Source: Deltaproteobacteria bacterium HGW-Deltaproteobacteria-14
GTDB taxonomy: Bacteria; Myxococcota_A; UBA9042; PHBI01
Length of the DNA stretch: 64,000 nucleotides
NCBI GenBank assembly: GCA_002841945.1
Contig: PHBI01000012.1
Span: 4,169-68,168, forward strand
Direction of reading: 5' to 3'
Below, one piece after another: positions 20,164 to 27,571 of this stretch. Below the pieces are notes generated by a model. The model searched no databases and had not been told where the DNA came from. It saw nothing but the letters and a program-made list of their open reading frames with translations. Numbering within the stretch: the stretch's first letter is position 1; each line of letters begins with the position of its first letter. The position numbers and the translations under genes were made by a program.

Positions 20164-21939
20164 CTAGGGCGCGGTGATGAACGTGTTCTTGTCACCGTCG
20201 GTCTGGGACTCGACGGTCACGGAGGCCCAATCACCGGCGGCCGGCTTGACGTAGGCGGCGACGCCGGTGGCGTCCGCGGCCCCGTCGGCCTTGTACTCGA
20301 CGGCGTCGAGCACGAACACGAACTGGGGCTGCTGGCCGCTGGACAGCAGGCCGTCGTGCTTGCCGGTGTTCTCCGACAGCACGAAGGTCCAGATGCCGTC
20401 GGCGGCCGTCACGTCGCCCTTGGTGCCGTCATCGGTCATGGTGACCTCGCCCCAGGCCCACGCGCTGCCCTTGACCTTGAAGCTCGTGCTGCCCGCGAAC
20501 AGCGACGAGACGTTCGCCGCGTCGATGGTCAGGCGCATGTCGATCTCGCCAAAGGCCCCGATGGTCAGGCCCTGGGCGTCGATCGCGGTGGTGGCGCCCG
20601 CCGTGACCGTGAAGGCGCCGTTGCCGCCAACCCAGATCCAGTCGCCCGCCGCCGGGGCGACGTAGTTGCGCACGAGGCCGTAGCCGAACTCCTGCTCGGC
20701 CGCGTTCGAGACCCACACCGTGACGCCCCAGATGTGGTCGCCAGCGACGGAGCCGGCCGGCTCGTGGCCGCCCGCGTCCCAGGCGCCGTCATCGTAGAGC
20801 GGGACGTACGGCCCACCCCACGAGTTGTCGAAGGCGAGGACGCGGGTGGTCTCGTCGTAGTTGAACGAGCCCTTCCACGCCATGGCGTCGCTGGCCTCGT
20901 AGGTCTGGTTAGCCGAGTCGTCGACCTTGAAGTTGACGGCGACGGTGTCGGCCGGCGGGACGAACGCCGCGGCGGCGACCTTCACGTAGGTGTTCTTGTC
21001 ACCGTCGGGGTAGTTCTGGATCGCGGCCGGCTGGAAGCCCGCGCCGGTGTTGAGGAAGGCGTTGACGCCGTCGGTCGGAGGCGCGCCGTCGACCTTGTAC
21101 TCGACGCCGTCGAGCACGAAGACGAAGGGCGCCTCGGCGCCGGAGACGAGGAGGCCCGTGTGCTTGGTCAGGTTCTCCGAGAGCACGAAGGTGTAGATCT
21201 CGTCGCCCGCGGTGTCGTCGCCCTTGGTGGCGTCGTCGGTCATCTCGACCTCGACCCAACCCCAGGCGCCGCCCTTGACCTTGACGGTGGTGTACGAGCC
21301 GGTGCCGAGGTCGAAGGCGCCGCCGAGGTTCGCGCCGCTGTCGCTGACGTCGATCGTGAGCTTGAGGTCGGTCGTGCCGAAGGCGGGGATGACGAGGCCG
21401 GTCGCGGTCACGGTGCCGGTCTCGCCGGCGGTGATCGTGACGCTGCCGTTGGTGCCCTGCCAGATCCACTGGCCGTCCGAGCCGTCCACGGAGCCGCTGA
21501 TGGCGCCGTAGCCGAACTCCTGGTCGGCCTCGGGGGTCGCGAAGAGGATGCCGCAGGTCCAGATGTGGTCCCCGGCGGTCGCGTCGCCGTGGGTGCCGTC
21601 ATCGTAGAGCATCGGGAAGGGGCCGCCCCAGCTGTTGTCGAACGCGACGATGTTGGTCGCCGCGTCGTAGGCGAAGGAGCCCTTCCAGGCGAGGCCGTCG
21701 GTCGCGTCGTAGGTGCCGTTGGCGCTGTCGTCGATGGTGAAGACGAGCGTGGCGTAGTCGCTCGTCACGTTCGTGTCGGTCTCGACGTTGGTGTCCGCGG
21801 AGGTGTCGCCACCGGTGTCGCTCGTGACGGTGTCGGTCGTCGACGTGTCAGTCGCGGGCTTCGGGTCGTCGCCACACGCTGCGAAGAGCGTCATGGCTCC
21901 CGCGGCGAGCAGCAGAGTGATGGAGTTGAAAAGACGCAT
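20164..21939 (-). CDS. Non-catalytic lipoprotein with two tandem CBM20-like (starch-binding-like) beta-sandwich modules.
   Basis: Start trimmed to ATG 21939 with RBS GGAGGA. Signal [32 protein letters not shown] (lipobox plus D/T linker). Internal duplication of about 250 aa: DDSANGTYDATDGLAWKGSFAYD...DDGTHGDATAGDHIWT repeats as DDSANQTYEASDAMAWKGSFNYD...AGSVAGDHIWG. No catalytic motifs. Confidence 0.8.
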   Translation of the reverse strand: MRLFNSITLLLAAGAMTLFAACGDDPKPATDTSTTDTVTSDTGGDTSADTNVETDTNVTSDYATLVFTIDDSANGTYDATDGLAWKGSFAYDAATNIVAFDNSWGGPFPMLYDDGTHGDATAGDHIWTCGILFATPEADQEFGYGAISGSVDGSDGQWIWQGTNGSVTITAGETGTVTATGLVIPAFGTTDLKLTIDVSDSGANLGGAFDLGTGSYTTVKVKGGAWGWVEVEMTDDATKGDDTAGDEIYTFVLSENLTKHTGLLVSGAEAPFVFVLDGVEYKVDGAPPTDGVNAFLNTGAGFQPAAIQNYPDGDKNTYVKVAAAAFVPPADTVAVNFKVDDSANQTYEASDAMAWKGSFNYDETTRVLAFDNSWGGPYVPLYDDGAWDAGGHEPAGSVAGDHIWGVTVWVSNAAEQEFGYGLVRNYVAPAAGDWIWVGGNGAFTVTAGATTAIDAQGLTIGAFGEIDMRLTIDAANVSSLFAGSTSFKVKGSAWAWGEVTMTDDGTKGDVTAADGIWTFVLSENTGKHDGLLSSGQQPQFVFVLDAVEYKADGAADATGVAAYVKPAAGDWASVTVESQTDGDKNTFITAP

Positions 21940-22260
21940 GGGTTGAAAATTCCTCCTCTCAGGGGGCGAGGCGGCTCGTCCGTCATACCGGGACGGGGCG
22001 ACGTGCCCCATCGTAACGTGACCTCCGGCTTGGTCGCGGGGACGACCACATCGCTGCCGGGATCGGGGCGCATTATTCGCGACGACAACGCTGGAATCAA
22101 GATTGCCGGGCCGATCCGCCCCCAAAGCGTGACGTAGCGGCGAGTCACGCCCGCGGCCGGGCCGTAACCTGCTGTTTCTAAAGCATAGCGAAAGGTGGTG
22201 CCGCGGGTCGCCGCGCGACCCATCGGGTGCGCTCGGGGGGGTGACGTCGCTCGCCGTGAC

Positions 22261-23248
22261 TCAGTTCTGATCGCCGCCGGGTGAGGTGGGAGCGATCGGG
22301 ATCGTCGCGGTCACCGGGATCACCGCCGACGCGCCCTGGCTCGCTTCGCCAGCGGTCAGGCGCAGAGACGCCGCGTCACCGGCCACGCTCAGCACCGTGG
22401 CGGTCCCGATCGCCACCCCGGCGGCGTCCACGACGGTGACGAGCTGGCCGGCGGCGAGCTCGCCGTCACGGACCGGGGACGCGGTCAGCAGCGCCCCCTG
22501 GGCGAAGGCGACCGGGATCCCGGTCGGCCGCGGCCGATCACCGCTCGGGTAGGCGAGGGGGACCGGTCGGGCGGGGACCACCTCCTCGGTCGCGTCGAGC
22601 ACGGGCGGGCCGGCGCCGACGAGGTGGCAGCGCGCGTCGTCCCAGACGTGACAGTCTCCGCCCGACGGGGCCACCTGGCGCACGCGCCCCTCACCGGTCG
22701 TCGACGTGGCCATCACCGCGACCAACACCCCGGCGATGTGCGGCGGGATGTCGCGGGCGTGAAACGACGCGCGGAGCGTGTGCCCGCTGCTGACGACGTG
22801 GGTGGGGCGGAGGACGTCGCCGCCGTCGTTGTCGCGGAGCGACGAGATCACCAGCACCCAGTCCCAGGCCTCGGCGGCAGGGACGTCGAAGCCGCGGCCC
22901 GGGAGCGCCGCGATATGCCCCGCGCCGGGCACCGAGTCGAGGTAGACGTCGACCGTCTGCGGCCAGAGATCCACCGCCAGGTCCTCGGCGAGTCGGACGT
23001 CGCGGAGCCTGCGCACCGGCGCGGCGAAGGTCACCTCGGCGACCACCTCGTCGCCCTCGCGCCACAGGGTGAAGCGCTCGAGGTCGAATGTGCCGGCGCG
23101 AATATCCGCCGCGTCGGGGTGGACGAGCCGCACGTCCCCCTCGGGGTCCGCGAGGTCCACCAGGACGGTGCGCGGTTGCGTCGCGCAGGCAGAGGTCCAG
23201 AGAGTACCCAGCAGGCACGTAAATATAGCGCGCCATACAATGCTGCAA
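22261..23248 (-). CDS. Putative lipoprotein with a glucodextranase-C-like domain. Start uncertain.
   Basis: Continuous protein-like ORF. Probable TTG/GTG start near 23248 gives (M)RCSIVWRAIFTCLLGTLWTSACA. The region DLADPEGDVRLVHPDAADIRAGTFDLERFTLW resembles the DPxGDDxGPGxYTYP...FDL motif seen in 26741..27571 and at the C-terminus of the 15984 amylase. Confidence 0.55.
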
Positions 23249-26734: not shown

Positions 26735-26740
26735 GATGTG

Positions 26741-27571
26741 TCAGCCTTCGGGGTAGACCATCTGCAGGACGGCGCGGGTCCCGCTGCCGTCGGGGTTGCA
26801 CTTGAAGGTGCCGAGCATCTTGTGCTGAGCGTCCTTTTCGGACTTGTCGCCCTGGGCCTTGCCGGCGATGAGATCCATGACGTGCGGGTCGCAGTCGTAG
26901 TCGGAGCCGCCGCCGAAGCGGTGCTGGCCGCCGAACTCGTTGACCTTGCGGGTCAGGAGATCGGTCTTGTCGGGGAAGCCCTCGTTCGACTGCATCAGCA
27001 CCTGGAAGCCCCACTGCTTGGAGAGGTCGGCGCCGAGGTCCTTCTTGGCGAAGCGGGCGACGAGCTTGCGGCCGCGCACGCTCACCGTCGTCGGGATGAG
27101 GATGTCCTTCTTCATCGCCGCGGCCTTGGCGGAGACCTCGGCCTGCACCCGGGTGCGCCCCTGGGGGCTGATGACGAGCGCCTTGTCCCAGCGCTGGTCG
27201 TCGGCGAAGGTGACGTTGAAGCCGGGCAGCCCGTCCTTGTAGCCGCTGCCGGCCTTGTGGTCGGTGTCGATGTGGATGACGATCATCTGGAGCGAGAAGC
27301 CGTTGCCGTCCCAGGCCCGGGAGTCCCACGGGTCGTCGATCTTGGCCTTGACGGTGACCGAGACCTCGACGGTGTCGCCCTTGTCGGCGATCTCGACGTC
27401 GGTCAGGTCGAAGGAGCCGGGGGTGTACACGGCGTCGGTCGGGTAGGTGTACTGCCCGGGGCCGTCATCGTCGCCCTTGGGGTCCTCGAAAGAGATCGTC
27501 TCGCCAGCGAGCGCGAGCCCGCCGTACATGACCATGACCAGTGTCAGGGAACCGGTGATGAGCTTCTTCAC
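26741..27571 (-). CDS. Secreted protein with a glucodextranase-C-like (Glucodextran_C-like) domain.
   Basis: Signal MKKLITGSLTLVMVMYGGLALAGE. Motif EDPKGDDDGPGQYTYPTDAVYTPGSFDLTDVEI, which recurs in the 15984 amylase C-terminus and in the 22261 gene. First gene of a minus-strand operon. Confidence 0.75.
   Translation of the reverse strand: MKKLITGSLTLVMVMYGGLALAGETISFEDPKGDDDGPGQYTYPTDAVYTPGSFDLTDVEIADKGDTVEVSVTVKAKIDDPWDSRAWDGNGFSLQMIVIHIDTDHKAGSGYKDGLPGFNVTFADDQRWDKALVISPQGRTRVQAEVSAKAAAMKKDILIPTTVSVRGRKLVARFAKKDLGADLSKQWGFQVLMQSNEGFPDKTDLLTRKVNEFGGQHRFGGGSDYDCDPHVMDLIAGKAQGDKSEKDAQHKMLGTFKCNPDGSGTRAVLQMVYPEG

Follow-up and report, generated by a model that had tools for sequence, protein, structure and literature searches.

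A putative alpha-glucan uptake locus centred on an unannotated outer-membrane barrel family found chiefly in uncultured Myxococcota

A five-gene cluster within a starch-degradation island

The stretch of DNA analysed here (the window, 64,000 nucleotides) contains a cluster of five minus-strand genes, termed A to E, flanked by genes for starch degradation and maltodextrin import (Table 1). An earlier note on this DNA, made from the sequence alone, had proposed these five genes, and their reality is supported by a third-position GC of 0.91-0.96 in the open reading frames of A, B, C and E together with the presence of homologues of all five in many related loci. Gene D, previously placed at 22261..23248, required correction: that interval is not a multiple of three in length and its translation contains four stops. 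The frame of D is that of the open reading frame 22261..23463, with a likely TTG start at 23253, giving MRCSIVWRAIFTCLLGTLWTSAC with the lipobox WTSAC. The overlaps of 6-7 bp reported with the barrel gene held for B and C, which overlap by 7 nt (4 nt if C starts at its second GTG), but not for A and B, which are 6 nt apart; the TGA stop of A is followed by CACATC and then by the ATG of B. Gaps of approximately 50 nt and of 321 nt separate C from D and D from E, respectively.

Table 1 Features of the five-gene cluster and its surroundings in the window.
Feature	Position	Strand	Description
A	26741..27571	-	276 aa; secreted Glucodextran_C (DOMON/CBM9-like) protein; barrel partner
B	24818..26734	-	638 aa; outer-membrane beta-barrel (~22 strands, modelled); candidate maltodextrin channel
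C	23304..24824	-	506-aa lipoprotein; family-specific N-terminal domain and C-terminal CBM20-like domain
D	22261..23253	-	~330-aa lipoprotein; N-terminal Glucodextran_C domain; coordinates corrected
E	20164..21939	-	591-aa lipoprotein; D/T-rich tether and two tandem repeats, each with CBM20/48-like beta-sandwiches
G	15984..18686	-	lipoprotein GH13 alpha-amylase; Pfam Alpha-amylase 7.6e-54, C-terminal Glucodextran_C 1.7e-19
H	27828..29636	+	lipoprotein GH13 enzyme, divergent from A; Pfam Alpha-amylase 3.1e-34
I	29695..33132	+	lipoprotein GH57 enzyme with Big_5 and C-terminal CBM20; Pfam GH57 8.1e-44
J	36525..40094	-	lipoprotein pullulanase; Pfam Pullul_strch_C, PUD, Pullulanase_N2, CBM_48
K	46261..48222 (start putative)	-	GH13 enzyme; Pfam Alpha-amylase 2.5e-94 and DUF3459
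MalK-type ABC importer	51948..56219	-	Pfam ABC_tran, OB_MalK and TOBE_2; SBP_bac_1; BPD_transp_1
Importer ATPase	55014-56135	-	MalK-type
Importer solute-binding protein	53642-~55000	-	lipoprotein; SBP_bac_1
Importer permease	51948-53633	-	MalF-like, long
CotH-like lipoprotein	56425-58146		outside the starch island

The earlier description of the cluster's products as secreted or lipid-anchored was confirmed: A possesses an ordinary Sec signal peptide (ALA↓GE) and no lipobox, and C (LLAGC), D and E carry lipoboxes. Likewise, Pfam and NCBIfam scans found no catalytic domain in any of A to E, in agreement with the absence of catalytic motifs noted earlier.

The glycan genes of the window comprise three GH13 genes, a GH57 gene with CBM20, a pullulanase gene and a MalK/solute-binding protein (SBP)/permease importer. 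None of the 38 window open reading frames scanned matched a maltoporin or TonB-dependent receptor model. The lipobox is VAAC in G, followed by GGDTKP and a D/T-rich linker; FAAC in I, followed by GDDAKP; and LVGC in J, followed by GDDPKP. In H the likely start is the methionine preceding the lipobox GAPAC, and an upstream extension of the K open reading frame holds a possible lipobox (TSSC). In most lipoproteins of the island a common CGDD(P/A)KP motif precedes a D/T-rich tether. The CGDD motif is also carried by the CotH-like lipoprotein. The CBM_20 match of I scores 28.9 bits (1e-6) against a cut-off of 23.3.

The barrel, its partner and the non-catalytic lipoproteins

Gene B encodes the outer-membrane barrel anticipated by the earlier note, with a signal peptide and, in a structure model of moderate confidence (pLDDT 64.8), about 22 strands. 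General hallmarks of such barrels are present: besides the signal peptide, the antiparallel strands are even in number and the chain ends in an aromatic residue. Short turns alternate with long loops between the strands, and the poorly modelled parts coincide with the conserved loops. In structural comparisons, B is matched best by the barrels of TonB-dependent transporters. Neither B nor A contains a plug domain or TonB box; B has no room for a plug because its first strand begins immediately after the signal peptide. The proposal of a barrel other than a TonB-dependent SusC is upheld in this respect, but "porin-like" was imprecise for a barrel of TonB-dependent transporter size.

Searches of B against Pfam and NCBIfam returned no match at E <= 1, whether to DUF5916, to Slam/DUF560 or to any other translocon family in Pfam. 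Neither the 18-strand barrel nor the PF02264 match that define the maltoporin LamB was found. Every named homologue of B is labelled "hypothetical", and a precomputed match to PF13609 (Porin_4) exists for a few of them. The family is compact and unannotated, comprising 219 clusters (50% identity) in a set of 1.84 billion proteins.

The glucodextranase-C-like domains reported previously were confirmed in A (PF09985, Glucodextran_C; 2.8e-54, 184.4 bits) and D (2.7e-9, 37.3 bits); the domain also scores above the gathering score of 22 bits in enzyme G (70.7 bits). In mature A the domain starts directly after the signal peptide, and A aligns to domain C of glucodextranase 1ug9 (residues 779-879, 2.5e-16). 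Glucodextran_C occurs alongside alpha-glucan enzymes and folds as a DOMON/CBM9-like beta-sandwich, not as a true SLH domain (PMC10074034). Kinetic data suggest that such a domain recognises alpha-glucan chains, although sugar binding has never been demonstrated (PMC10074034). The near-universal and sometimes fused partner of the barrel is this Glucodextran_C protein, A, rather than a CBM20 lipoprotein, an observation absent from the earlier note.

Assignment of CBM20-like regions to the lipoproteins stood by homology in C and by fold in E, but not by Pfam score, CBM_20 (PF00686) remaining below its gathering score in both. Residues 316-433 of C align at 36% identity (E 2e-15) to the part of the GH57 protein I that Pfam assigns to CBM_20, and the best fold matches of the E model are starch and glycogen CBM20/48 domains. 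Three of 20 C homologues match CBM_20 weakly and below threshold (best E 0.041). A profile of C recovered neither CBM20 nor SusD sequences among PDB sequences, and no SusD/RagB match was found in C, D or E using Pfam and NCBIfam. The motifs LGNW, IWT, YKYTWG and EEWPGNQR, which we take to be of CBM20 type, are kept across the 20 C homologues. The tryptophans of LGNW and EEWPGNQR are invariant or nearly so, and may correspond to the site-1 tryptophans of CBM20. Additionally, the NCBIfam model choice_anch_X (choice-of-anchor X, NF041940; cut-off 25 bits) is exceeded in C (28.3 bits) and, over three stretches, in E (53 bits); its DDGxxGDxxAGDxIWT motif sits within the CBM20-like domains.

Conservation and genomic context

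Relatives of the barrel family were found in 154 of 185,579 species-representative genomes scanned, almost all of them uncultured Myxococcota. The family is not strictly confined to that phylum, as some relatives come from MAGs labelled Syntrophaceae and Steroidobacteraceae. We found no published description of the module, in line with the contention that none had been defined for Myxococcota. Conservation of the operon, on which the earlier reading depended, holds across more than 80 genomes. A lies directly upstream of B in approximately 66 of the 72 related loci with enough flank, and two natural A-B fusions exist (P0251 and P0266), joined by continuous Pro/Ala-rich linkers. C follows B in all clades but one. 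The 26 loci of that derived clade carry A-B but no C, and show no glycan genes within 10 kb; in one of its members (L081) the pair is flanked by DnaK/DnaJ. Homologues of D (42-53% identity) follow C in L001-L005, L010 and L012, and A-like or D-like proteins lie downstream of the barrel in L071-L079, L090, L092 and L093.

The glycan gene classes of the window recur within 10 kb in 19 of 80 loci, across several clades; the majority of the 80 have no GH gene within that distance. G is retained after E in L001 and L002, H beside A in L001 and L005, and I in L001-L004, L010, L020, L023, L049 and L054; homologues of J lie near B in L071, L075, L078 and L079. The same gene classes also adjoin the A-B-C locus L084. 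The importer trio adjoins the A-B module in L002-L005, L010, L012, L071-L079, L084, L089, L090, L092 and L093. In four divergent B families (L089, L090, L092 and L093) and at fusion P0266 (L086), A-B lies inside or directly beside GH13 genes, and MalK-SBP-permease genes are present in four of these five loci. The operon type GH13-MalK-SBP-permease-A-B characterises distant relatives. Fusion P0251 (L088) lies approximately 4 kb from GH13-like and GH15 genes. A generic porin, which the earlier note had allowed for, is not borne out by these data: the family is compact, unannotated and co-conserved with A and C, and in distant lineages it resides inside operons of GH13 and MalK-type ABC-importer genes.

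Proposed function and comparison with known systems

We propose, with a probability of roughly 0.6, that the region encodes the outer-membrane portion of a system for using alpha-glucans (starch, glycogen or maltodextrin), with B as its channel and A as the partner of B. The proposal draws on the observed gene content, domain and fold assignments, A-B(-C) linkage, A-B fusions and co-location with GH13, GH57 and MalK-type genes. Polymer would be held at the cell envelope by the enzymes and by the non-catalytic E, C (with one CBM20-like domain) and D, provided that the CBM-like and Glucodextran_C domains bind alpha-glucan and that the lipoproteins are exposed at the surface. The lipoprotein enzymes G, H, I and J would cut the retained polymer, and the fragments would pass inward across the outer membrane via B, A and B acting as one unit. 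We infer that A lies either at the periplasmic opening of B or inside its lumen, because the fusions join A to the N-terminus of B, which standard barrel topology places in the periplasm. A MalE-like binding protein and MalFGK-type ABC importer would then carry maltodextrins into the cell. The Sus-like character claimed by the earlier note is supported as functional logic, by the homology of C to CBM20, the lack of catalytic domains, the co-conservation of the barrel and the conservation of the operon; it does not extend to family membership.

A more far-reaching version, which we regard as tentative and rather doubtful, is that A and B constitute a new class of TonB-independent outer-membrane glycan transporter. 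Here the plug or gate of a TonB-dependent-transporter-sized barrel would be a separate or fused DOMON/CBM9-like alpha-glucan-binding domain, and C would dock on the unusually conserved loops from outside the cell, capping the barrel in the manner of SusD. Such a convergent "SusCD" from unrelated parts would be widespread in uncultured Myxococcota and related lineages.

The A-B pair might instead be dedicated to surface display of the locus's lipoproteins, namely C, D, E and the enzymes (GH13, GH57 and pullulanase). It would then be a functional counterpart of Slam and other surface-lipoprotein translocons, A would serve as receptor or chaperone in the periplasm, and maltodextrins would enter elsewhere. 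Every enzyme and binding protein of the island is a lipoprotein, most with the shared motif and tether, and to act on polymeric starch they would have to reach the surface; furthermore, the barrel is unusually wide, near-universally paired with a soluble periplasmic protein and translationally coupled to lipoprotein gene C. However, in L089, L090, L092 and L093 A-B is the sole outer-membrane component beside a complete ABC importer, the position at which an uptake channel would be expected. The CGDD motif extends to the CotH-like protein beyond the starch island and is therefore unlikely to be a locus-specific export signal, and B matches none of the translocon families in Pfam. We consider this reading improbable.

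Marginally less probable again is that A-B is a general housekeeping pair of outer-membrane proteins, its position in a starch island being incidental. It could act as a major porin, or it could tether the envelope through cell-wall binding by an "SLH-like" Glucodextran_C domain, as proteins combining SLH and a barrel (for example OmpM) do. The loci with A-B only form one derived clade, whereas links to CBM20 lipoproteins, GH13 genes and MalK-type importers are seen in the basal clades and in every distant outgroup. Glucodextran_C, moreover, is DOMON/CBM9-like with no true SLH fold (PMC10074034), and is borne also by enzyme G of the same operon. Export through B of a self-made alpha-glucan or other exopolysaccharide (cf. 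AlgE, BcsC and PgaA), which the CBM lipoproteins would keep on the surface, appears very unlikely.

Should the channel reading be correct, a compact family of "hypothetical" outer-membrane proteins would acquire a function, stand-alone Glucodextran_C proteins a biological role and metagenomics a marker for the prediction of alpha-glucan use. Detailed knowledge of glycan capture and import at the outer membrane comes mainly from SusCD of the Bacteroidota and from simple porins such as LamB. The locus points to a third solution, consisting of an unannotated barrel family of about 22 strands, a DOMON-like partner or fusion and CBM20-type lipoproteins, and provides a case in which the convergent evolution of Sus-like machinery can be put to the test. 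Myxococcota are usually viewed as predators or cellulose degraders and, to our knowledge, their carbohydrate uptake is essentially undescribed.

The Bacteroides Sus system (SusC/D/E/F/G) and Bacteroidota PULs likewise encode a wide outer-membrane barrel next to amylases and non-catalytic starch-binding proteins that are lipoproteins, couple a lipoprotein gene directly to the barrel gene and, in SusE/SusF, employ tandem starch-binding beta-sandwich domains. In contrast, the TonB box, plug, TonB_dep_Rec and SusD families of SusC/SusD were matched by nothing here in Pfam or NCBIfam. B is constantly partnered by a secreted DOMON-like protein, in some cases fused to the N-terminus of B, uptake at the inner membrane would be by a MalK-type ABC importer, and the hosts are Myxococcota and related "delta" MAGs. 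The enterobacterial maltose regulon (LamB, MalE/MalFGK, MalS) also groups an outer-membrane channel with a MalK-type importer, a binding protein and alpha-glucan hydrolases, with no apparent TonB dependence, as here. However, LamB is an 18-strand trimeric porin whereas B is modelled with about 22 strands, matches no Pfam family and has the proposed partner A, and the maltose regulon lacks the CBM lipoproteins.

Outside the Bacteroidota, MalA of Caulobacter is a TonB-dependent maltodextrin transporter with a 22-strand barrel. TonB-dependent transporters resemble B in barrel size, and the A-B fusions in having a soluble domain N-terminal to the barrel, but possess the plug domain and TonB box absent from B and A; no TonB or ExbBD genes were found in the neighbourhoods examined. 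Proteins with a CBM9-like domain and a DUF5916 barrel place a DOMON-like beta-sandwich at the N-terminus, ahead of a large outer-membrane barrel, an architecture that the A-B fusions may share; no literature on this link was found. Finally, PF09985 is common to A, D, G and the Arthrobacter glucodextranase (1ug9/1ulv), and occurs also in GH57 amylopullulanases and a GH65 dextran debranching enzyme, associating the domain with alpha-glucan-active proteins. In the glucodextranase it is an enzyme appendage, whereas in A it forms a stand-alone secreted protein coupled or fused to an outer-membrane barrel.

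Gene models and the surrounding starch island

The earlier note had placed five genes (A to E) in a row on the minus strand, B encoding the proposed outer-membrane barrel. All five exist, but the coordinates of the fourth and the spacing of A and B had to be revised. As first delimited (22261..23248), the fourth gene is out of frame and meets four stop codons on translation. Gene D instead shares the frame of ORF 22261..23463; judging by the sequence, it most likely starts at the TTG at 23253, so that its signal peptide would end in the lipobox WTSAC. The described overlaps of 6-7 bp hold for B and C (7 nt), whereas A and B are 6 nt apart. 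Gaps of about 50 nt and 321 nt separate C from D and D from E, respectively. The products had been called secreted or lipid-anchored: C, D and E carry lipoboxes, and A an ordinary Sec signal peptide.

Genes A to E and their neighbours in and around the starch island (window coordinates)
Gene	Position	Strand	Product or feature	CG(D/G)D after lipobox
A	26741-27571	-	ORF; homologues in related loci	
B	24818-26734	-	ORF; homologues in related loci	
C	23304-24824	-	ORF; homologues in related loci	
D	22261-23253	-	ORF; homologues in related loci	
E	20164-21939	-	ORF; homologues in related loci	yes
F	18740-20032	-	DUF4032 + Kdo/WaaP-like kinase fold; no signal peptide	
G	15984-18686	-	GH13 + Glucodextran_C	yes
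H	27828-29636	+	GH13, divergent from A	
I	29695-33132	+	GH57 + Big_5 + CBM20	yes
	33500-34573	-	DUF4185 protein within the island	
	35438-36751	-	DUF4185 protein within the island	
J	36525-40094	-	Pullulanase	yes
	40076-42913	+	Lipoprotein; six-hairpin glycosidase-like domain, weak MGH1-like match	yes
	42914-46258	+	Large protein; bacterial TSP3 repeat match	
K	46261-48222	-	GH13 + DUF3459	
Importer	51948-56219	-	MalK-type ATPase, binding protein, MalF-like permease	
	56425-58146	-	CotH kinase-like lipoprotein; directly adjoins importer genes	yes

E, G, H, I and J are lipoproteins, in which GDD(P/A)KP-like residues and a D/T-rich linker 30-40 residues long come after the lipid-modified Cys. 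More widely, in six lipoproteins of the window the lipobox leads into CG(D/G)D, in most cases extended by (P/A)KP, and most of the six have a low-complexity D/T-rich tether, again 30-40 residues long. The acidic residues after the lipobox cysteine resemble the Bacteroidota lipoprotein export signal, and in this lineage motif and tether may direct sorting to the surface or act as a spacer. A scan of 38 window ORFs turned up neither a maltoporin nor a TonB-dependent receptor. Gene F, between E and G, was set aside as a part of the system: the closest relative (L001) lacks it there, so it is probably an insertion with no connection to the module.

The window has a G+C content of about 70%, and promoter and terminator scans returned chance-level counts, with the sole exception of a sigma-70-like match at 22100-22072, in the D-E gap upstream of E. 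Close relatives (L001-L003 and L010) have an extra GH13 gene between D and E (L001:13811-16231). The divergent A/H promoter region of about 256 bp contains a perfect 13-bp palindrome, CGTTACCGTAACG (27665-27677). It was rejected as a shared operator, as it occurs once in the window, no more than chance, and gave no evidence of a regulon.

Putative glycan-binding domains of A, C, D and E

A consists of a full-length Glucodextran_C domain (Pfam PF09985, 2.8e-54) aligning with domain C of Arthrobacter glucodextranase 1ug9 (2.5e-16), and the N-terminus of D is a Glucodextran_C domain above the Pfam cut-off (2.7e-9); the glucodextranase-C-like domains proposed from sequence are thus called by Pfam in both. 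Glucodextran_C is a DOMON-like beta-sandwich resembling CBM9 that occurs on GH15, GH57, GH65 and GH49 alpha-glucan enzymes; kinetic data suggest alpha-glucan chain recognition, and it is not proven to be a CBM (PMC10074034). The mature N-termini of A (ETISF...) and of the fusion P0266 (DTITL...) are superficially TonB-box-like. A TonB box in A was rejected because these residues are the first strand of Glucodextran_C, with no N-terminal extension; the Pfam match begins at profile position 3.

The CBM20-like label given to the lipoproteins C and E is supported, but not by Pfam. CBM_20 did not reach threshold in either, and of 20 C homologues three gave a hit, in each case sub-threshold. However, residues 316-433 of C align with residues 1019-1128 of the GH57 enzyme I (36% identity, E 2e-15), the stretch that Pfam calls as CBM_20 (1e-6, above cut-off). 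The motifs LGNW, IWT, YKYTWG and EEWPGNQR, which we take to be of CBM20 type, are kept across the 20 homologues. The model of E matches the folds of the CBM20 domains of GDE5 (8.5) and of STBD1 bound to maltotetraose (8.0), together with laforin, AMPK-beta/SIP2 and the CBM20 of glucoamylase and beta-amylase.

Across Pfam and NCBIfam, the only family match of C and E is the NCBIfam "choice-of-anchor X" motif, and hhalign comparison of their profiles found in common only a 34-residue motif, DDGxxGDxxAGD (loop DDGxxGDxxAGDxIWT). Searches of PDB chain sequences with B, C, E and the profile of C yielded no useful match. A JGI metagenome protein is 100% identical to E, whose 90% cluster includes a "Deltaproteobacteria bacterium" MAG protein. 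In line with the earlier note, which saw no catalytic motifs, neither Pfam nor NCBIfam detected a catalytic family in any of A to E.

Barrel B and its linkage to A

B matched nothing in Pfam, NCBIfam or PDB sequences. In its AF2 model (pLDDT 64.8), about 22 strands run antiparallel; the signal peptide leads straight into the first of them, and the last residues of the protein are ...LEVGW. Barrel topology usually places the N-terminus in the periplasm and makes periplasmic turns short. Under this rule, mean conservation in an 87-sequence alignment is 0.72 for the long, presumably extracellular loops, 0.56 for the strands and 0.49 for the periplasmic turns. The best-conserved loops, L3 (0.87), L7 (0.81) and L8 (0.76), stand above the rest of the protein and are modelled with low confidence. 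An ordinary porin shows the opposite, variable surface loops. The conservation seen here suggests a role for the loops as a constriction, a ligand site or a docking surface. Across L1-L8 the window protein has 28 aromatic residues, and two cysteines of L5 (residues 252-284), C266 and C277, are invariant in a 16-sequence alignment, suggesting a conserved disulfide.

A word-indexed search returned 681 homologues of B, every named one "hypothetical", whereas the clusters at 50% identity that an exhaustive profile search recovered from 1.84 billion representatives numbered only 219. In the genome collection, 154 stretches were confirmed to carry relatives. The best 80 of these loci belong almost entirely to uncultured Myxococcota or "Deltaproteobacteria" MAGs; more distant members come from Syntrophaceae- and Steroidobacteraceae-labelled MAGs.

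Operon conservation, raised as a check on the proposed module, was found for A and B: in about 66 of the 72 loci with enough flank, the gene immediately 5' of B is A. Furthermore, P0251 (959 aa, L088:2152-5031) and the divergent P0266 (877 aa, L086:106-2739) are continuous A-B fusions ordered as N-terminal Glucodextran_C, Pro/Ala-rich linker and barrel. A GH13 gene directly follows P0266, and GH13-like and GH15 genes lie about 4 kb from P0251. The fusions lead us to conclude that A and B act as one unit, A being attached at the N-terminus of the barrel. The family of the predicted outer-membrane component has no annotation, and its two-part architecture, fused in some members, is distinctive.

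A neighbour-joining tree built from the barrels shows C after B in all clades but one, a derived clade of 26 loci with A-B only, no C, no glycan genes nearby and unrelated contexts. A T4 gp19-like gene is the next gene 3' of the barrel in 19 loci, 16 in the derived clade (L019, L024, L028, L031, L032, L036, L040, L042-L044, L062, L065, L067, L068, L070 and L073) plus L081-L083; its product is Lys/Glu-rich, without a signal peptide, and carries at its C-terminus a tail-tube domain like that of phage T4 gp19. In 19 of 80 loci, from several clades and in differing orders, genes for E, D, GH13, GH57, pullulanase or MalK/binding protein/permease are no more than 10 kb away; the A-B-C locus L084 likewise adjoins such glycan and importer genes. 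The distant relatives P0263, P0273, P0268 and P0284 belong to tidy operons ordered (pullulanase or GlgB-like)-GH13-MalK-binding protein-permease-permease-A-B, after which comes either a Glucodextran_C protein or a GH13 that carries this domain.

Proposed mechanism, alternatives and known systems

The module very probably belongs to alpha-glucan utilisation. In the mechanism that we favour (probability about 0.6 as a whole), alpha-glucan would be bound and cut at the envelope by tethered enzymes and CBM lipoproteins, maltodextrins would cross the outer membrane through B together with A, and a MalE-like protein and ABC importer would finish uptake. Going by the fusion topology, A would sit in the lumen of B or at its periplasmic mouth. 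We infer that the lipoproteins are exposed at the surface, that B is a channel and that transport runs in this direction.

The many lipoproteins at the locus would also fit A-B as a device that exports them to the surface. We consider this unlikely: for the distant operons, which have no outer-membrane component other than A-B, it is the less economical reading. Slightly less likely again is a housekeeping porin or envelope tether, to which the A-B-only clade and a Pfam "SLH-like" label might point; that clade is, however, derived, and the basal and outgroup lineages are starch-linked. Export of polysaccharide through the module appears highly improbable, with binding-protein-dependent importers present and no synthase or glycosyltransferase genes seen.

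The literature searched gave no description of this module, and the myxobacterial CAZyme papers in it mention no outer-membrane or transport components. With its N-terminal DOMON-like domain joined to a barrel, the module may resemble the CBM9 + DUF5916 proteins, with no supporting Pfam hit. The proposed likeness to the Bacteroides starch utilisation system (SusC/D/E/F/G) stands as functional logic, in the way of working, but not as family membership: the module has neither the SusC-type TonB-dependent transporter nor the SusD-family protein that define Sus. A parallel arrangement is the Escherichia coli mal regulon, with B in place of LamB; B differs from maltoporin in its approximately 22 strands, the absence of a PF02264 match and its obligate partner.
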